Notes under the pieces: model-generated
What the model was told of the DNA's origin: nothing
Database searches by the model: none
What the model saw: only the letters and a program-made list of their open reading frames with translations
Position numbers and translations under genes: made by a program
In this document: one piece after another, positions 25,237-42,071 of the stretch
Layout of the letters: each line of letters begins with the position of its first letter
How positions within the stretch are numbered: position 1 is the first letter of the stretch
Origin: a virus
Length of the DNA: 42,071 nucleotides
Direction: 5' to 3' (one strand)
Virus record (IMG/VR): IMGVR_UViG_3300008807_000162
Location: 1-42,071 of that record

Positions 25237-25830
25237 TCAGCCTCCAGCCTTGGTGGCTTCGCGAAGACGCTTGGCCGCCTGCAAGATGATGATCTTGGCG
25301 TTAGCGGCCCCCGCAGCGGCCCCCGCAGCGTCCCCCGCAGCGGCCCACGCAGCGGCCCCCGCAGCGGCCCACGCAGCGGCCCCCGCAGCGGCGTCAATCT
25401 TCCCGTTGGCGAAGTCGCGCGCCGCCTGGATAGCCTTGGCGGGGCGATCATCCTTCGGCCGCACCTTGTAGAAGATCGGCAACACCTTCTCGGCCATGTC
25501 GGCTGCGGCGAGGCGCATGGACTTCTCGTCCAGCAAGCCGACGATCTTGATCAGGCGCGCTTGGGCGAATGCCGTCTTGTTGCCGTCCTGCGATTCGTCG
25601 CCCTTGCCTTCGGCTTCGCAGAGATAGCCAGTGATGGGCACGCGAGGCAGCCACTCGACGATGCCGACAGCCTTCACAAGGTGATAGCCGCTTAAGCATG
25701 CCTCGACGTGATCGACCTTCGGCATCCACTTGCCGGGACGCGATCCCTTGGGCGCGAACCATCGGCCCGACCCGCCGTGGATGGGCTCGAAATCAGTTGA
25801 GACTATCTTGTAGAGCTTCGCGGTCTGCAT
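25237..25830 (-). CDS. Hypothetical protein with Ala/Trp/Gly low-complexity repeat (first gene of the leftward operon)
   Basis: Met57 of ORF 25237..25998, giving 197 aa. N-terminal domain MQTAKLYKIVSTDFEPIHGG...CLSGYHLV. C-terminal AAAGAAAWAAAGAAAWAAAGDAAGAAAGAA. Confidence 0.65.
   Translation of the reverse strand: MQTAKLYKIVSTDFEPIHGGSGRWFAPKGSRPGKWMPKVDHVEACLSGYHLVKAVGIVEWLPRVPITGYLCEAEGKGDESQDGNKTAFAQARLIKIVGLLDEKSMRLAAADMAEKVLPIFYKVRPKDDRPAKAIQAARDFANGKIDAAAGAAAWAAAGAAAWAAAGDAAGAAAGAANAKIIILQAAKRLREATKAGG
25304..25393. repeat. Tandem 12-bp repeat, about 7.5 copies (GCGGCCCCCGCA / GCGGCCCACGCA / GCGTCCCCCGCA)
   Basis: Read directly from 25304. In-frame within CDS 25237..25830, encoding (AAGA/AAWA)n. 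Confidence 0.9.
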
Positions 25831-25855: not shown

Positions 25856-25896
25856 ACTGTACCCATAAATGGGTGATAGTCAACCAAGAAATGGGT
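25856..25896 (-). promoter_or_regulatory. PL-like promoter with two operators (OL)
   Basis: In minus sense: ACCCATTTCTTGGT, TTGACT (-35, 25883-25878), 16-nt spacer containing the palindrome ACCCAT-tt-ATGGGT (25861-25874), TACAGT (-10, 25861-25856). Homologous to 27007..27048. Confidence 0.65.
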
Positions 25897-25939
25897 AGAC
25901 ACCCAGTTTATTATTTCCCCCGTGGGACGGGAGGTTGAA

Positions 25940-26588: not shown

Positions 26589-26981
26589 TTACCGACCCAA
26601 GCGCTTAAGGTAGCGCTGCAAGACGAAAACGGCCTTTTCCTCTTCCGGACTCATCTTCTCGGGGTCGTAAATTTCCTTGGTCAGCACGTCGTAGAGCCGA
26701 TGGGGGGCCGCGGGAGCGGCGGCCTGTGACTCGGCAAATCCGTGGCCTGAGAAATTGACCGTATCTGGAGGGGACTTGCCGGTCTGCAGAAACTGCGCGG
26801 TCGTTCCTAGTGCGGTGGCAATCTCGATGATTGCGCGAGGCGACGTGACAATCCCATTTTCCACATTGGCCACGCTCTGCTGTGAAAGCTTTCGGCCGAG
26901 TCGAGTTACTGCTGCGGCCAACTCTTCTTGGGAGAGGCTTCTTGCCTCACGCAGCTCTCTAATACGCTGAGCTATCGACAT
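26589..26981 (-). CDS. XRE-family (CI-like) repressor without a peptidase S24 domain
   Basis: Start MSIAQRIRELREARSLSQEELAAAV...SQQSVANVENG (HTH_XRE) at 26981, chosen because the longer form would cover the operators. 130 aa. The C-terminal half is too short for an S24 domain and unlike one. Confidence 0.8.
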   Translation of the reverse strand: MSIAQRIRELREARSLSQEELAAAVTRLGRKLSQQSVANVENGIVTSPRAIIEIATALGTTAQFLQTGKSPPDTVNFSGHGFAESQAAAPAAPHRLYDVLTKEIYDPEKMSPEEEKAVFVLQRYLKRLGR

Positions 26982-27006
26982 TTGGGTAGGATGCCACAAA
27001 GCGCCC

Positions 27007-27048
27007 ACCCATTTCTTGGTTGACCGAATACCCATTTATGGGTACGCT
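27007..27048 (+). promoter_or_regulatory. PR-like promoter with two operators (OR)
   Basis: ACCCATTTCTTGGT (27007-27020), TTGACC (-35, 27020-27025), 17-nt spacer containing ACCCAT-tt-ATGGGT (27030-27043), TACGCT (-10, 27043-27048). The ATG of the cro-like gene lies 8 nt downstream. Confidence 0.65.
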
Positions 27049-27056
27049 CAGCACTC

Positions 27057-27284
27057 ATGGACACCACCCCCCTCCGCAAAGCATGCAAGATCGCCGGCGG
27101 TCAGGCCGCTCTCGGCCGCCTGATCGGCCGCAACCAGAGCACCATTTGGAATTGGCTGCAGAACGGCATCCCGTCTGACGATTGCCCCGCGGTTGAGAAA
27201 GCCGTGAAAGGCGAAATCACCCGTTACGATCTTCGTCCCGATGTCTTCGGCCCACCTCCCTCCAAGCAGGGAGAGGCGGCATGA
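27057..27284 (+). CDS. Cro-like / YdaS-family HTH regulator
   Basis: 75 aa. ACKIAGGQAALGRLIGRNQSTIWNWLQNG fits an HTH. Divergent from the repressor gene. Confidence 0.65.
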   Translation: MDTTPLRKACKIAGGQAALGRLIGRNQSTIWNWLQNGIPSDDCPAVEKAVKGEITRYDLRPDVFGPPPSKQGEAA

Positions 27285-32983: not shown

Positions 32984-33034
32984 CAGCACGTGACGCTCAC
33001 CGCGAGGGCGAAGCCGAACCAAGGAGTCCAAGGC

Positions 33035-33358
33035 ATGGATGAGCTGATAGAGCACGGCGCCCGACAAATGTTCGAGGCATGGGTGAAGCGGATCGACCCA
33101 GCCAGAACCCAACTGGAGGAGGAAGAGTCCGTCTGGGAAAGCCAAGACGATCAGTGCAAGACCTTGTGGCGCACTGACTTTCTCTCCGCCCTCCGCGCCA
33201 TTGAAGCCAGCGGCAAGTACAGGGTGGTGCCTGTGTGGCCCACTGACGAGTGGCTAGGAATCCATCCGTTAATGGACGCCATTGTCGCGCAGACATACCG
33301 CGATTCATGGAAGGCGTGGCTAGACCGCCTCGCCGCATCACCGAAGGTGCCGACATGA
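33035..33358 (+). CDS. Hypothetical protein
   Basis: Met16 of ORF 32990..33358. AAGGAG upstream. 107 aa. Confidence 0.6.
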   Translation: MDELIEHGARQMFEAWVKRIDPARTQLEEEESVWESQDDQCKTLWRTDFLSALRAIEASGKYRVVPVWPTDEWLGIHPLMDAIVAQTYRDSWKAWLDRLAASPKVPT

Positions 33359-33558
33359 GTGAAGATGACGTCGAAATCTCCGTAACGGAGGCTGGCGGCT
33401 ATCGCGAACGACACTGTGCTGAATGCAATGGCCGCCTTGAGGCCCACATCGACTACCTGACGGACCGCTACCGCGTGACGCTGCCGTCCCGGTGCCCAAC
33501 CAAGGACGCCTGCGAGGAATCCATGGTCGGATCGCAGATCGTGAGGCACCGCCCATGA
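33355..33558 (+). CDS. Hypothetical Cys-containing protein
   Basis: ATGA overlap, 67 aa. CAECNG...C...C. Confidence 0.55.
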   Translation: MSEDDVEISVTEAGGYRERHCAECNGRLEAHIDYLTDRYRVTLPSRCPTKDACEESMVGSQIVRHRP

Positions 33559-33570
33559 CCGCCCCGATGA

Positions 33571-33795
33571 TTACCGCGGCAACTCCCGCAGCAGGGCCTT
33601 CAGCAGGTCTATCCGCTCGTGGATATCGGAGCGCAGTTCGGCGGCGAGTTCCGGCGGTGGCGGCGGGTTCCCGGCATCCCAATACCGGATCATCCGGCCC
33701 GATTTCCCGCGCTTACGGGCCATCTCGGTCTGCCAGCGCGGCCCGTACATCGCCTCTCCGATGCGGCGAAGGAGGGCGGGGGGTAGGTCAGTCAT
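33571..33795 (-). CDS. Small HTH-like protein, last gene of the minus-strand cassette (candidate autoregulator)
   Basis: Met51 of ORF 33571..33945, giving 74 aa. WQTEMARKRGKSGRMIRYWDAGNPPPP resembles Cro/antitoxin-type HTH proteins. Confidence 0.55.
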   Translation of the reverse strand: MTDLPPALLRRIGEAMYGPRWQTEMARKRGKSGRMIRYWDAGNPPPPPELAAELRSDIHERIDLLKALLRELPR

Positions 33796-33955
33796 CCCGA
33801 GTAAGGTCCGATGGATCAGGGGCGTTCTCTTCGTCGTGGTGGGCGCACCAATCCGGGTCGTTCGGATCCCGCCATTCGCGAGACTTGCGGCGCAGTTCCT
33901 CGGCCCGGCGGGCCGCGTCGCCCTTGGGGACGTCACCGCGAGCAATCGACGTCAT
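33788..33955 (-). CDS. Small hypothetical protein (55 aa), middle gene of the cassette
   Basis: Not in the ORF track. ATG 33955 lies 1 nt after the upstream TAA. 8-nt overlap with the next gene. Translates as MTSIARGDVPKGDAARRAEELRRKSREWRDPNDPDWCAHHDEENAPDPSDLTRDD. Confidence 0.5.
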   Translation of the reverse strand: MTSIARGDVPKGDAARRAEELRRKSREWRDPNDPDWCAHHDEENAPDPSDLTRDD

Positions 33956-33956
33956 G

Positions 33957-34424
33957 TTATCCCTCCATCGTGCCGGTTTGGATCAGGCTGGCCAGAATAG
34001 CGACAGACTGGGGCGACGCCATGGTCTCGAATGCCTCGGACGAGAGGACGAACGTCACGTCGTCGCGGGCGTGCAGGCTGCGAATGGCCGGAGATGTGAC
34101 CGTCAATTCGCCGGCGCCTTCGCTGATCTGCACGCCGATCCGCTTCGCCGGGTCGACGCCCATCGAACCGGCGTTGAAGGCGGAATGGTTGGAGACGCGC
34201 AGGTCCTCACCCGCCGGCCCCACCGCGTAGAGCGACCACTTGGACCCGCCCTGCGAACGATACCCGAGGGCGGCGACGAGCGCCTCCATGACCTCGCGCA
34301 CAACCTGCTTCTCTCGCTTATCCGTGTCCGAAGCATGGAGATCGGCAGAGGGGGCGTCTCCTACCGGCCATTCGACCGAAGCGTAACCGTAGGTGTCGAC
34401 CAGCATTTTTGGCTCCATGTTCAT
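33957..34424 (-). CDS. Hypothetical 155-aa protein, first gene of the cassette (start at 34424, 34418 or 34406)
   Basis: Clean ORF with an ordinary composition. No family recognised. A promoter and operator lie immediately upstream. Confidence 0.65.
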   Translation of the reverse strand: MNMEPKMLVDTYGYASVEWPVGDAPSADLHASDTDKREKQVVREVMEALVAALGYRSQGGSKWSLYAVGPAGEDLRVSNHSAFNAGSMGVDPAKRIGVQISEGAGELTVTSPAIRSLHARDDVTFVLSSEAFETMASPQSVAILASLIQTGTMEG

Positions 34425-34459
34425 TTCCTAAATATAGGAAATGTTCACAAGAAGATCAA
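34422..34459 (-). promoter_or_regulatory. Near-consensus sigma70 promoter overlapped by a perfect 9-4-9 palindromic operator
   Basis: Minus sense: TTGATC (34459-34454), 17-nt spacer, TATATT (34436-34431). Palindrome CATTTCCTA-aata-TAGGAAATG at 34422-34443. The predicted start site is at about ATG 34424. Confidence 0.65.
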
Positions 34460-34501
34460 CAGCAGTCGGCGCAACTTTCTTGCGAATTTCAGGAGGCTCC
34501 C

Positions 34502-34849
34502 ATGACCACCCCCGCTTCCCCTAGGGGTGAGGATAGCGTGCTGACGCCTCGCTCTGTCGATGCCCGTTCATTCAAAATCGACGGCACGCCATGGCCTCGG
34601 CCGGGCGATCTGATGCTGTTCACGAATGCTGGCGGCTACGATCACGAGCAGAAGGAAGCCGCCGGGCTGTTCTCGGAATGGACGCTCTACCGCGTCAAGG
34701 ACATCCGCATCGGCAGCTATGACCACCGGATCGAGTTCAAGCACCTGCCGGGCCGCTGGTTCAACGGCGTGATGTTCCAACTGATTGTGGAGCTGCCTGA
34801 TCCACGAGGCGTCAGCGAACACACCCCCACTGAGGGAGACAGGACATGA
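34502..34849 (+). CDS. Hypothetical protein, bracketed by inverted element copies e and i
   Basis: Met32 of ORF 34409..34849. AGGAGG upstream. 115 aa. Confidence 0.65.
   Translation: MTTPASPRGEDSVLTPRSVDARSFKIDGTPWPRPGDLMLFTNAGGYDHEQKEAAGLFSEWTLYRVKDIRIGSYDHRIEFKHLPGRWFNGVMFQLIVELPDPRGVSEHTPTEGDRT
34540..34551 (+). repeat. Dispersed element copy e: GCTGACGCCTCG
   Basis: Context GGGGTGAGGATAGCGTGCTGACGCCTCG, 38 nt inside ORF 34502..34849. Confidence 0.8.
34805..34816 (-). repeat. Dispersed element copy i (GCTGACGCCTCG on the minus strand)
   Basis: Plus strand reads CGAGGCGTCAGCGAACACACCCCCACTGAGGGAGACAGGACATG, so the long form sits upstream of ATG 34846. Confidence 0.8.
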
Positions 34850-35082
34850 GCGGAGAGAACGAAGCCCTGAAGCCCTGTCGCTCATACATGCGTGAGCGGT
34901 CCTTCTGCCGGGATGGCTTTATGCAGTGGTCCAATACGTGTTGGGGAGCGCCAAACGGCAACATACCGATGTGCTGCAAGGAGGACGATTGCGCGCATCA
35001 CTTTGCGCAAACTGGCGGCAAGCCACCTGATCATTTGATCGTCGCAGCCCTTCCCACCGACACGAAAGGCGGCGGGACATGA
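34846..35082 (+). CDS. Hypothetical Cys-rich protein
   Basis: 78 aa, ATGA overlap. Confidence 0.6.
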   Translation: MSGENEALKPCRSYMRERSFCRDGFMQWSNTCWGAPNGNIPMCCKEDDCAHHFAQTGGKPPDHLIVAALPTDTKGGGT

Positions 35083-35270
35083 GCCTCACCTGTGAAGAGC
35101 AGATGGCGATCATGCGTCACGTCGAGGAGGACGTGAAACTGGGTCGCCGCTGCCAATCCTGCCTTCGCTGGAGGGATCGGCCGACGCTGGACGTCGATTG
35201 CGATGCCTGCCGAGCGGAAGACGCCGAATGGCTTTCACCACTCCCCGATATGCGAGGCGACCTGACATGA
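35079..35270 (+). CDS. Hypothetical Cys-rich protein
   Basis: 63 aa, ATGA overlap. CQSC...CDAC. Confidence 0.6.
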   Translation: MSLTCEEQMAIMRHVEEDVKLGRRCQSCLRWRDRPTLDVDCDACRAEDAEWLSPLPDMRGDLT

Positions 35271-35440
35271 CCGACGACGACGCCGTTCCATGGACCTCAA
35301 TGGAGGAGGCGTGGCTGACGCCTCAGAACACGCGCCAGCAAGACAGGCTCGCCGCCATGGACAGGGGTTACCGAATCGCATTCGAGCGCGACATTCTCCC
35401 CCATATCCCGCAGCCCCAATGCACGTGGACATTCTCATGA
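35267..35440 (+). CDS. Small hypothetical protein (57 aa)
   Basis: Met24 of ORF 35198..35440. ATGA overlaps on both sides. Confidence 0.5.
   Translation: MTDDDAVPWTSMEEAWLTPQNTRQQDRLAAMDRGYRIAFERDILPHIPQPQCTWTFS
35314..35325 (+). repeat. Dispersed element copy f: GCTGACGCCTCA
   Basis: Context GGAGGAGGCGTGGCTGACGCCTCA inside ORF 35267..35440. Confidence 0.7.
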
Positions 35441-35676
35441 ACACCATCGGCCGCTTCTTCGAGAACAAGGAAAAGCGCTACCCGGCCGCGCCGGACTGGT
35501 CAGGCAAGATCACCATCACTGAGCCGTTCCTGAAGTCGCTCGGTGATGCCTACCGCGCGTGGGTTGCCGCCGGCCGGCCCGAGCCCTTCGAGATGGTCAT
35601 CGAGGGCCGGTGGAAGCGCAACGAAAACCTCTCGTGGCTCAATCTCACGGTCATCCCGCCGAAGGTGCAGCCATGA
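35437..35676 (+). CDS. Hypothetical protein
   Basis: Met50 of ORF 35290..35676. 79 aa, ATGA overlaps. Confidence 0.55.
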   Translation: MNTIGRFFENKEKRYPAAPDWSGKITITEPFLKSLGDAYRAWVAAGRPEPFEMVIEGRWKRNENLSWLNLTVIPPKVQP

Positions 35677-36181: not shown

Positions 36182-36448
36182 TTGCCTAAGGCCCCTCGCG
36201 GTCCGTACATCGATAAGCCTTTCCGAGACGCATTGCGGCTTGCCGTGAAGCGGACGGGCGATGCTGACGTGAAGGGCAAGACCAAGCTCGACAAGATTGC
36301 GATTGCGCTCGTTGGCCAAGCCATTCTTGGCGATGTCCCGGCCATCAAAGAGATTGGCGACCGTCTGGACGGCAAGGTTGCTCAGGCGCTTGAGCACAAG
36401 GGACATGATGGCGGCGCGCTGGTGGTGACATGGCAGCCGCCGTCGTAA
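36182..36448 (+). CDS. Putative terminase small subunit
   Basis: 88 aa, TTG start. Immediately upstream of and overlapping terL. ALVGQAILGDVPAIKEIGDRLDGKVAQ resembles motifs seen in small terminase-like proteins. Confidence 0.5.
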   Translation: MPKAPRGPYIDKPFRDALRLAVKRTGDADVKGKTKLDKIAIALVGQAILGDVPAIKEIGDRLDGKVAQALEHKGHDGGALVVTWQPPS

Positions 36449-37788
36449 TTCCGTACAGCCCCCGATTGGCGTTCATGCCGTATCACGAGACGGCCAAGCG
36501 CTGGCGCGTAATCGTAGCCCACCGGCGTGCTGGCAAGACCGTAGCGACGATCAACAACCTGATCCGGTCGGCCCTGACGTGCCCGCTCCCCGAGCCCCGC
36601 ACGGCCTACATCGCGCCGCTCTACAAGCAGGCCAAGGATGTGGCGTGGTCCTACCTGAAGCGCTTCGCCCTGGTGATCCCCGGCGCCGAGCCCAACGAAT
36701 CGGAACTGCGCGTCGACCTCCCCAACGGAGGCCGTGTTCGTCTTTACGGCGCCGACAACCCCGATGGCATGCGCGGGATCTATCTGGACGACTGCGTGCT
36801 CGACGAGGCGGCCGACATGCGCCCCCGCGTGCTGCCTGAGATCATCCGGCCGGCCCTGTCGGATCGCAAGGGTCGCCTGACGGCCATCGGCACGCCGCGC
36901 GGCCACAACGACTTCTACGACCTCTGGCAGACCTCGCAGAGCAATCCTGAGGACTGGTACGGCGTCATGCTCCGGGCCAGCGAGACGGGGCTCGTGGACG
37001 ATGAGGAGCTTCGCTCGGCCCGTCAAATGATGACGCCCGAGCAGTACGAGCAGGAGTATGAGTGCAGCTTTGAGGCGGCTATCCACGGCGCCTATTGGGG
37101 CCGTGAGATGGCGGCAGCCGAGGCCACCGGCCGTGTGTGCGAGGTGGGCGTCGATCCCGAGCAGCCCGTCTGGACGGCATGGGACATTGGCGTAAAGGAC
37201 GCGACCGCGATCTGGTTCTATCAGCCCCTCGCGGGCGGCCTGAACGTCGTGGACTACTACGAGGCATCGGGCGTCGGCGTGGACCACTACCACGACGTGC
37301 TGCGCTCCAAGGCGCAGGAGGGCGGCTACAAGATCGGCCACTGCCTGGTGCCTCATGACGCGAAGGTCAAAGAGTGGGGCTCCGGCCGCACGCGCATTGA
37401 GCAGATGCTGGGGCTGGGGCTGAGCCCGTGGGTCGTGCCGGACCACCGCGTTATGGACGGCATCAACGCCGCCCGTCTGACCATCCCGGCCGCCCGCTTC
37501 GACCGCGCCAAGTGCGCTGACGGCATCGAGGCCCTGAAGCAGTACCGCGCCGAGTTCGACGAAGAGCGCAAGGTGCTGAAGCCGACGCCGTTACATGACT
37601 GGACGAGCCATGGCGCCGATGCCTTCCGCTACCTGTCGATGGGCTGGCAGGTTGCGCGGCAGGAGCTTCCGACGCCTTCCAAGACCGATTTCTACATCGG
37701 CACGGCCGAGGGGACGATTCAGTCCAATCTCTCCATCAAAGAGATGATCGACCGGCAGGCCAAGCGCCGGAAGGAGCGGGGGCTGTGA
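36430..37788 (+). CDS. terL: Terminase large subunit
   Basis: 452 aa. Walker A AHRRAGKT, Walker B YLDDCVLDEAAD, C-terminal nuclease-type region. Start could alternatively be Met16 (36475). Confidence 0.9.
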   Translation: MAAAVVIPYSPRLAFMPYHETAKRWRVIVAHRRAGKTVATINNLIRSALTCPLPEPRTAYIAPLYKQAKDVAWSYLKRFALVIPGAEPNESELRVDLPNGGRVRLYGADNPDGMRGIYLDDCVLDEAADMRPRVLPEIIRPALSDRKGRLTAIGTPRGHNDFYDLWQTSQSNPEDWYGVMLRASETGLVDDEELRSARQMMTPEQYEQEYECSFEAAIHGAYWGREMAAAEATGRVCEVGVDPEQPVWTAWDIGVKDATAIWFYQPLAGGLNVVDYYEASGVGVDHYHDVLRSKAQEGGYKIGHCLVPHDAKVKEWGSGRTRIEQMLGLGLSPWVVPDHRVMDGINAARLTIPAARFDRAKCADGIEALKQYRAEFDEERKVLKPTPLHDWTSHGADAFRYLSMGWQVARQELPTPSKTDFYIGTAEGTIQSNLSIKEMIDRQAKRRKERGL

Positions 37789-41722: not shown

Positions 41723-42071
41723 ATGGCTTCTCCCAGTGCAGTCTTCACGGAGTTGGTCACTTCGACCCTCCGTAACCACCCGTCCGAAATCGCCGACAAC
41801 GTCAGCCAGAACAACGCCCTGTGGCGCTACCTCAAGCGCAAGGGCAAGATCGACCTTGAGGACGGCGGCTACGAGATCGTCCGAAACCTCGACTACGCCA
41901 ACAACCAGACGTACCAGCGCTATTCGGGCTTCGACACGCTGAATATCGGCGCGTCGGACGTCCTGACGGCGGCCGCGTATCCATGGATGCAGGCGGCGGT
42001 CAACGTCACCGCGTCCGGTCGCGAACTCCGCATGAACAGCGGCGACAACGCGATCTTCAACCTGTCGAAGG
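41723..42071 (+). CDS. Major capsid protein, N-terminal part (runs off the window end and continues at 100..716)
   Basis: ATG 41723 with AAGGAA upstream. No stop before the window end. In frame with ORF 15..716 through the 99-nt overlap. Confidence 0.75.
   Translation, partial: MASPSAVFTELVTSTLRNHPSEIADNVSQNNALWRYLKRKGKIDLEDGGYEIVRNLDYANNQTYQRYSGFDTLNIGASDVLTAAAYPWMQAAVNVTASGRELRMNSGDNAIFNLSK
41973..42071. repeat. Terminal overlap, identical to 1..99
   Basis: Read directly. Confidence 0.95.

Follow-up and report, generated by a model that had tools for sequence, protein, structure and literature searches.

The window analysed here is the whole of IMG/VR virus record IMGVR_UViG_3300008807_000162, a stretch of 42,071 nucleotides, and this text concerns a small gene cassette within it, in which three open reading frames (ORFs) on the minus strand break a run of plus-strand genes between a DUF1376 gene and the terminase. 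An earlier note, made from the letters of the DNA alone, had described these ORFs together with a promoter and a palindrome of their own and had likened them to acr-aca operons, that is, anti-CRISPR genes with their regulator, and to antirepressor modules. All three ORFs lie exactly where the note had placed them (Table 1) and encode, in the order in which they would be transcribed, proteins of 155, 55 and 74 residues. The last is a helix-turn-helix (HTH) protein, and the two genes ahead of it are called cargo in what follows. The promoter and palindrome of the window, taken alone, are suggestive; comparison with related loci in other phages and in bacterial genomes makes them solid.

Genes, promoter and palindrome of the cassette

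Both cargo genes have a coding-like distribution of GC over the three codon positions (0.64/0.47/0.80 for the 155-residue gene and 0.73/0.54/0.71 for the 55-residue gene, in a genome of 63% GC), and the independent gene calls of the Joint Genome Institute (JGI) contain the same two genes and the third in a version of 59 residues, which starts at an internal methionine (MYGPRW...). The start of the 74-residue protein at 33795 is to be favoured because the shorter version drops the family-invariant G-E-A, and it agrees with all homologues. A longer reading of the last ORF, 124 residues from TTG 33945, was rejected, as the extension is off-frame in composition and all homologues begin about 10 residues before GEA. 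The genes are tightly packed: a single nucleotide separates the TAA of the first from the ATG of the second, which has GGAGGG upstream, and the second and third share 8 nucleotides (ATGACTGA).

The intergenic stretch ahead of the first gene is A/T-rich, as had been noted (43% GC versus 63% genome-wide). It holds TTGATC-17-TATATT, the sole sigma70-like site within 33000-35500, an interval in which about 0.7 such sites are expected by chance. To call this promoter near-consensus, as the earlier note did, was generous for a match at 9 of 12 positions, whereas the relatives described below back the site itself. The perfect 9-4-9 palindrome around the -10 element is unique in the genome, and none of 100 shuffles contained such a palindrome even with 3 mismatches permitted. 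ATG 34424 forms the final 3 bases of the second half-site and lies 7 nt past the -10; among the alternative starts of the first gene (ATG 34418 and ATG 34406) the latter has GGAG 7 nt upstream. The -35 element of the cassette is moreover flanked by the arms of an imperfect inverted repeat, TTCACAAGAA / TTCTTGCGAA, at 34444-34453 and 34477-34486, 23 nt apart, which could be the site of a second regulator.

A family of small HTH proteins with a conserved, probable operator

A word-indexed protein search with the 74-residue protein returned only the query itself. Pattern-based scans recovered family relatives at 66 IMG/VR loci and 31 GTDB genome loci, and a further relative is an unannotated ORF of Acidovorax phage Aval; in addition, the protein matches two PHROGs of unknown function (about 1e-6). 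The family occurs in phages and prophages of Alpha- and Betaproteobacteria, the genome hosts including Hyphomicrobium, Phenylobacterium, Acetobacteraceae, Sphingobium, Sphingomonas, Bradyrhizobium and Mesorhizobium as well as Ensifer, Shinella, Stappia, Paracidovorax, Pelomonas, Rhodoferax and Methylophilaceae. Its members share the signature LLxxxGEA(L/M)YGPRWQ, followed by the HTH (...LARDLGVSDRTVRRW.AG) and by one long helix. When a profile of 33 family sequences was searched against the PDB, the top five matches were all Aca2 or YdiL structures (7ezy, 2.3e-5; 1s4k, 6.6e-5; 7b5j, 8w35 and 7vjo, about 1.5e-4), followed by AcrIF25 and, weakly, by HigA-2 antitoxins (E 0.03). The suggestion that the last gene encodes a small HTH protein is thus borne out by the family profile, whereas the window sequence alone reaches Aca2 only at E 0.064.

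What would such a protein bind? The loci were oriented with the HTH gene on the plus strand, and the count covered the 51 viral loci whose HTH sequences are distinct and whose upstream DNA extends over at least 700 bp. The palindrome TGTCCTA-N4-TAGGACA was found within 1.2 kb upstream of the HTH gene in 30 of these 51 loci at up to 2 mismatches in 14 positions and in 35 at up to 3, at a distance from the HTH gene of 203-1066 bp (median 410). At up to 2 mismatches the upstream windows, 63 kb in total, gave 32 matches and the 394 kb elsewhere gave 6, and the pattern was repeated in an independent set, 22 of the 31 bacterial genome loci. When 39 non-redundant viral sites are aligned on the palindrome, TTGACa appears at -18 to -13, followed by a 17-nt spacer and TAtATT, and the promoter and palindrome of the window align in exact register, base for base, with this conserved promoter/operator, as they do again with that of the bacterial genomes. 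In most relatives the HTH gene is the last one behind the conserved promoter and palindrome.

Moreover, the operator co-varies with the recognition helix. Helices of the form ...DRT(V/M)RRW pair with the operator TGTCCTA, and helices of the form ...(V/L)RT(V/I/M)QRW with the symmetric variant TGTCGTA...TACGACA in six independent loci (L025, L029, L055, L073, L079 and L088). The second arginine is lost both in the window helix (KSGRMIRYW) and in that of locus L094 (VTDRTVRNW), and both go with TTTCCTA...(T/A)AGGAAA; relative to the family the operator of the window carries a symmetric change from G to T alongside its altered recognition helix. Such a pattern argues for direct binding by a dimer, because this predicts symmetric operator changes that track changes of the recognition helix in separate lineages, and binding of the HTH protein to the palindrome is strongly supported by this comparison of sequences.

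On the chromosome of Sphingomonas aracearum, locus L094 (2965-3219) has an HTH gene of the family but no cargo, and this gene is divergent from a 794-residue gene. The ATG of its HTH gene ends the palindrome TTTCCTA-taaa-AAGGAAA, and both the operator variant and the leaderless layout are thus as in the window.

In most relatives the operator is followed by a leader of some 50 nt that contains two hairpins: one of 4 + 4 bp, interrupted by a bulge, and then one of 4-5 bp whose loop holds the Shine-Dalgarno sequence GGAG. The leaders were scored by folding each sequence and by a count over a fixed architecture with shuffled controls: at least 11 of 12 pairs were formed in 52 of 58 leaders versus 46 of 174 shuffles, and all 12 in 26 leaders versus 4 shuffles. 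Since the outer stems comprise more than 30 different sequences, compensatory change is abundant. Rfam holds no family matching the leader, and the Aca literature searched contains neither the regulator family nor its operator or leader. The layout mirrors that of a published motif: Aca2 binds a promoter-overlapping inverted repeat and two hairpins in the 5' untranslated region (UTR), repressing translation (PMC13551039, PMC6765145), and similar layouts of DNA followed by RNA sites are described for Aca1, Aca10 and Aca12 (PMC13551039). In the window an mRNA starting with ATG 34424 and devoid of a leader, as proposed in the earlier note, is plausible from the sequence, because the leader is missing, the ORF starts at the predicted start site and L094 has a like layout. 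Near one of the related cassettes, about 1.5 kb away in L041 (2654-2777, minus), lies a match to the Betaproteobacteria-1 small RNA of Rfam (RF02932, 71 bits).

In some related phages one regulator probably controls several operons, because multiple copies of operator plus leader precede different small-gene operons. Two to three copies are found in L045 (4675, 5813) and L046 (1208, 3169, 4137), and further copies in L067 (1530, 3490) and L070 (3601). Government of several operons by one Aca protein was recently proposed for other Aca proteins.

The cargo genes and the setting of the cassette

Between operator and HTH gene the relatives carry one to three genes of 50-180 residues, and, in line with what the earlier note had suggested looking for, the genes beside the HTH homologues are highly variable: clustering of 51 cargo proteins at E 1e-5 yields 37 clusters. 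Pfam domains were found in 2 of 36 scanned cluster representatives, a J-domain and a hexapeptide-repeat transferase. Eleven cargo proteins have PHROG matches, all of unknown function with one exception: for the cargo of L017 (4777-4995, 72 residues) the match is to phrog_8786, 'type I-E anti-CRISPR protein', with E 1.4e-4 over residues 1-52 of the 65-position profile. None of the other 97 loci contains a relative of the 155- or 55-residue gene of the window. The loci L009-L011 share synteny with the window (TerL 40%, DUF1376 41% and HNH 71% identity, plus GapR) and have the cassette in the equal slot and in the same inverted orientation, its promoter lying towards the terminase, yet with a single, unrelated cargo gene of 57 residues. 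A conserved regulator, operator and slot with swapped cargo is the pattern that is used for finding anti-CRISPR and counter-defence genes.

The two cargo proteins of the window belong to no recognised family, as had been stated: Pfam, PHROGs, PADLOC and NCBIfam gave nothing significant. More precisely, PADLOC with E up to 1 contained no family for the three cassette proteins or for the proteins P0004 and P0005, NCBIfam no match for any of the three cassette proteins, and PHROGs nothing for P0002, P0004 and P0005. Among 1.84 billion representative proteins, all of them scanned with HMMER, the 155-residue protein has only three homologues, of 257, 411 and 294 residues, with the 155-residue domain C-terminal in all three. 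The word-indexed search with the same query gave the protein itself and one homologue, and a profile gave the two again and none new; tblastn with the 155-residue protein (phage and plasmid sequences) and with P0004 (phage sequences), a scan of IMG/VR for relatives of the 155-residue family and of the 55-residue protein, and PDB sequence searches with the 155-residue profile and with P0004 all returned nothing. Among the JGI gene calls, P0001 had no record on exact look-up. For the 55-residue protein, whose N-terminal half is basic and whose C-terminal half is very acidic, no homologue was found.

The 411-residue homologue, P0004, has an N-terminal match to ART-PolyVal (PF18760) with E 7e-5 and 24.1 bits, which is below the curated cut-off of 31.2 bits, and the 294-residue homologue is encoded after portal, capsid and TPR protein genes in another phage contig of 42 kb. 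Together these two observations give a weak lead that the 155-residue domain may be an effector module that phages also deliver within larger proteins. The comparison with polyvalent proteins extends to the domain's place at the C-terminus of P0004 and of the 294-residue protein of a structural module; it differs in that the domain matches no described polyvalent-protein domain and is free-standing in the window. An AlphaFold2 model of the 155-residue protein is confident (predicted local distance difference test, pLDDT, 87.8; predicted template modelling score, pTM, 0.85). Searched with Foldseek, as the earlier note had advised, the model has no significant match in the PDB (best E 0.2) or in BFVD, where the best viral match is an uncharacterised protein (E 4e-3, template modelling score 0.35). 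Small partial fold matches had raised a HicA-like identity, which was rejected at an hhalign probability of 0.3%. The invariant polar residues S61, K62, W63, S64, Y66, R76, S78, H80, N84, S87 and E106 suggest, at the level of sequence conservation, a defined site in the protein.

The genome around the cassette is circular and temperate, about 41,972 bp long with 63% GC; positions 1-99 of the window, which is an entire metagenome contig of the JGI, are identical to 41973-42071 (assembly overlap), and by this terminal identity the contig is a complete circular genome. The best relatives of its terminase among isolated phages are Pelagibacter podophages with only 45% identity, and 33000-35500 has no match at the DNA level among 50,697 phage records. 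The cassette stands backwards between replication genes on one side and terminase genes on the other. Its last gene stops 12 nt from the stop of a converging plus-strand gene, and no terminator-like site was found between the two.

Table 1. Positions of the cassette, of other features of the phage genome and of example leaders (leaders in the coordinates of their own loci)
Feature	Position	Strand	Remarks
Cargo gene 1	33957-34424	minus	155 aa, pI (isoelectric point) 4.8; alternative starts 34418, 34406
Cargo gene 2	33788-33955	minus	55 aa, pI 4.9
Regulator gene	33571-33795	minus	74-aa HTH protein, pI 10.1, GEA(L/M)YGPRWQ family, Aca2-like; probable autorepressor
-35 element TTGATC	34454-34459	minus	register of TTGACa in 39 related loci (-18 to -13 from palindrome core)
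-10 element TATATT	34431-34436	minus	last 2 nt of one half-site plus 4-nt spacer; family consensus TAtATT
Putative operator palindrome CATTTCCTA-aata-TAGGAAATG	34422-34443		perfect 9-4-9; spans -10, predicted start site and ATG 34424
CI-like repressor	26589-27035	minus	HTH_3 domain
YdaS/Cro-like gene	27057-27284
Operon after YdaS/Cro-like gene		plus	DnaA-C-like, HNH, GapR-like, VRR-NUC, Dam, second HNH, DUF1376
Large terminase	36430-37788
Probable main immunity operator, perfect copy	27029-27044		between CI-like and Cro/YdaS-like genes
Probable main immunity operators, degenerate	25860-25875, 25882-25897, 25625-25640		about 1.1-1.4 kb left of perfect copy
Two-hairpin leader, examples	L019 4754-4802; L041 4345-4392; L060 963-1010		plus about 50 other related loci

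On the plus strand a search of both flanks of the cassette (33559-34501) gave no promoter-like and no terminator-like site, and plus-strand transcripts apparently have to cross about 940 nt of the cassette in antisense on their way to the gene at 34502, in which AGGAGG stands 6 nt ahead of the ATG. Two plus-strand neighbours, the ORFs 32990-33358 and 33250-33558, share 109 nt; the likelier start of the latter is ATG 33355, overlapping the preceding stop as ATGA, and its product would be small, with CxxC motifs.

What the cassette may do

How could such a cassette work? At entry of the genome, when the regulator is absent, the promoter TTGATC-17-TATATT would fire and transcription would begin at or beside ATG 34424. 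The transcript would yield the acidic 155- and 55-residue proteins and, by translational coupling, the 74-residue HTH protein, which as a dimer on CATTTCCTA-N4-TAGGAAATG would cover the -10 together with start site and start codon and thereby shut the promoter. As a result, cargo would be produced in an early burst and afterwards, for instance in a lysogen, at a low and steady level. Repression would also halt head-on transcription into the plus-strand operon, and, by analogy with Aca1, it should protect plus-strand transcription, because the cassette points head-on and has no terminator. The regulatory half of this account, a pulse followed by repression, we hold to be very likely. On balance it appears probable that the cassette as a whole forms an acr-aca-type accessory operon, self-contained and autorepressed, with a cargo most likely devoted to counter-defence or host takeover. 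The two orphan genes are good counter-defence candidates, because the same switch precedes dozens of unrelated small genes in the relatives; whether the cargo of the window itself acts in counter-defence we judge to be an almost even call that leans slightly towards no. The earlier acr-aca reading thus stands as far as the architecture is concerned, with promoter, operator, terminal HTH gene and variable cargo, and lacks support where it invoked an antirepressor.

The generic layout of acr-aca operons is present, namely an inverted-repeat promoter, small genes and an HTH gene at the end, on one strand and tightly packed, and it is conserved in the relatives; so is their guilt by association, the upstream genes beside the regulator family differing from element to element. 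Accessory operons under Aca control are, as a kind of system, already known. A close comparison is with acr-aca2 (Aca2 of Pectobacterium phage ZF40, 7B5J, 7EZY and 7VJO; YdiL, 1S4K), which has in common with the cassette a small HTH regulator encoded last, a palindrome that overlaps a strong sigma70 promoter whose spacer is 17 nt long, and unrelated small genes upstream; the two 5' UTR hairpins, the second of which holds the ribosome-binding site, are shared with the window's relatives only. Unlike acr-aca2, the window family has the additional N-terminal LLxxxGEALYGPRWQ, its hosts are Alpha- and Betaproteobacteria, and no validated Acr is linked to it. Similarly, the logic of early-promoter shut-off is that of the Aca1 acr operons of Pseudomonas phages (JBD30 type), in which, as Stanley and colleagues are said to have reported in 2019, the Aca encoded by the last gene shuts a strong early promoter and so spares neighbouring phage genes. 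The Aca1 operons differ in HTH family and operator, and they are co-directional with the late genes, whereas the cassette runs head-on into the main operon.

Several observations weigh against this account. The likeness to Aca2 is distant and confined to the HTH and the next (backbone) helix, Aca2 residues of about 18-73. Aca2 (about 116 residues) has a C-terminal dimerisation domain after its long backbone helix (PMC8434428); the regulator of the window, with 74 residues as compared to about 116-125, has none and ends with one long helix (model residues 48-70). The core of the Aca2 operator, TTCG-N6-CGAA, overlaps the promoter (PMC6765145) and is absent here, where the palindrome overlapping the -10 is TTTCCTA-N4-TAGGAAA (TGTCCTA-N4-TAGGACA in the family). 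In all, three features that define Aca2 are lacking, which sets the family apart, and by its sequence it is a short, distant relative of Aca2 and not Aca2 proper, because the Aca2-defining C-terminal dimerisation domain is absent. The model of the HTH protein from the single sequence is poor, with a pLDDT of 70.5 that falls below 50 over the presumed recognition helix. The promoter match by itself is at chance level, given the number of such sites expected, a recognisable palindrome is absent from 16 of the 51 viral loci, and the window is without the conserved two-hairpin leader, its ORF beginning at the predicted start site. The window cargo matches no known anti-defence family, although no dedicated anti-defence library was searched, and its acidity is not a family trait, because the median pI of the family cargo is 7.9. 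Finally, we infer binding, repression and function, as well as the timing of expression and the leaderless start, from the comparison of sequences.

A more far-reaching version of the acr-aca reading would make the 74-residue protein the founder of a new Aca family, an Aca2 relative lacking the C-terminal domain that controls a large, unexplored pool of counter-defence genes in phages of Alpha- and Betaproteobacteria by binding DNA and, in the majority of members, also a two-hairpin leader. Within it, two arginines of the recognition helix would set operator positions 2 and 5, and the 155-residue protein would be a new counter-defence effector fold, used free and early or as the C-terminus of virion-delivered polyvalent proteins. 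With the code and the fold included, this version is tentative and, taken in its entirety, rather unlikely.

Alternatively, the cassette could be a 'moron' expressed from the prophage, its autorepression loose in the lysogen, for the benefit of the host through superinfection exclusion, anti-phage defence or lysogenic conversion. It resembles the morons of lambdoid phages in that it brings a promoter of its own, is inserted among conserved operon genes and varies in content between syntenic phages. It has an orientation against the surrounding operon and a site between early and late genes; it is also independent of the operators of the main repressor, and low constant expression under autorepression would suit a prophage gene. 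The dedicated, probable autorepressor and the conserved operator set it apart from lambdoid morons, as does the fact that no intrinsic terminator was found. Moreover, PADLOC has no defence model for the three proteins or their homologues, in its homologues the 155-residue domain forms the C-terminal part of larger phage proteins, one of which is encoded in a structural module, a pattern better suited to phage offence, and the regulator family is Aca2-like with one cargo that is Acr-like. We therefore regard the moron as an improbable account. Of the same low standing is the view that the same pulse-then-repress regulator serves early accessory genes unrelated to defence, for host takeover, control of division or metabolism, or tuning of lysis and lysogeny. 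The J-domain protein and the hexapeptide-repeat transferase among the family cargo are not classic anti-defence proteins, and the function of most cargo proteins is unassigned; the extreme turnover of cargo at a conserved slot is, on the other hand, typical of arms-race genes, and the L017 cargo has its Acr-like match.

In a module like P22 immI, the comparison drawn in the earlier note, the 155- or the 55-residue protein would inactivate the main repressor, with the HTH protein silencing this antirepressor in lysogens. The main repressor is indeed without an S24 peptidase, since the protein at 26589-27035 carries HTH_3 only, so that another route of induction would be needed; furthermore, the cassette is under separate control and resembles immI (ant, arc, mnt) as a small operon with operators of its own away from the main immunity region. 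The candidate operator of the main repressor, TACCCAT-N2-ATGGGTA, has 5 matches versus 0.4 expected, only at about 25.6-27.0 kb plus one at 2120. Neither an operator of this type near the cassette nor an alpha-type LexA box or other damage-responsive signal at its promoter was found, and an autorepressor alone gives no obvious induction signal. In immI the repressors are ribbon-helix-helix proteins and the antirepressor is conserved, whereas the cassette has an HTH protein and variable cargo, its proteins show no similarity to Ant, KilAC, BRO, Arc or Mnt, and the equal slot of the syntenic phage holds the unrelated 57-residue gene. An immI-like module is thus very unlikely. Most remote is a toxin-antitoxin or abortive-infection module in which the HTH protein would serve as antitoxin or regulator. 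In its favour the HTH profile's weak match to HigA-2 (E 0.03) and the resemblance of Aca2 itself to MqsA (PMC6765145) could be quoted, but no conserved toxin partner of the HigA/MqsA type stands beside the HTH gene, PADLOC and Pfam give no toxin match, and the HicA-like reading of the 155-residue protein failed as described above.

The reading as an autorepressed accessory operon of the acr-aca type has consequences beyond this phage. The protein motif GEALYGPRWQ together with the DNA motif TGTCCTA-N4-TAGGACA at a -10 forms a searchable pair. The natural co-variation of helix and operator provides ready specificity variants for the question of how small HTH proteins read DNA, and the occurrence of both leaderless and two-hairpin cassettes is relevant to the dual control at DNA and RNA level that was recently described for Aca proteins. 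The 155-residue protein, with a predicted fold that is confident and without match, appears worth direct testing. To our knowledge, anti-defence genes have mostly been traced, as guilty by association, through a small set of Aca regulators, of which almost all come from Gammaproteobacteria, Firmicutes and Actinobacteria, and we know of few counter-defence proteins from phages of Alpha- and Betaproteobacteria. In phages of these two classes, whose hosts include rhizobia, sphingomonads, acetic-acid bacteria and Burkholderiales, the pair of regulator and operator tags 37 or more small-gene families that are unrelated to one another.

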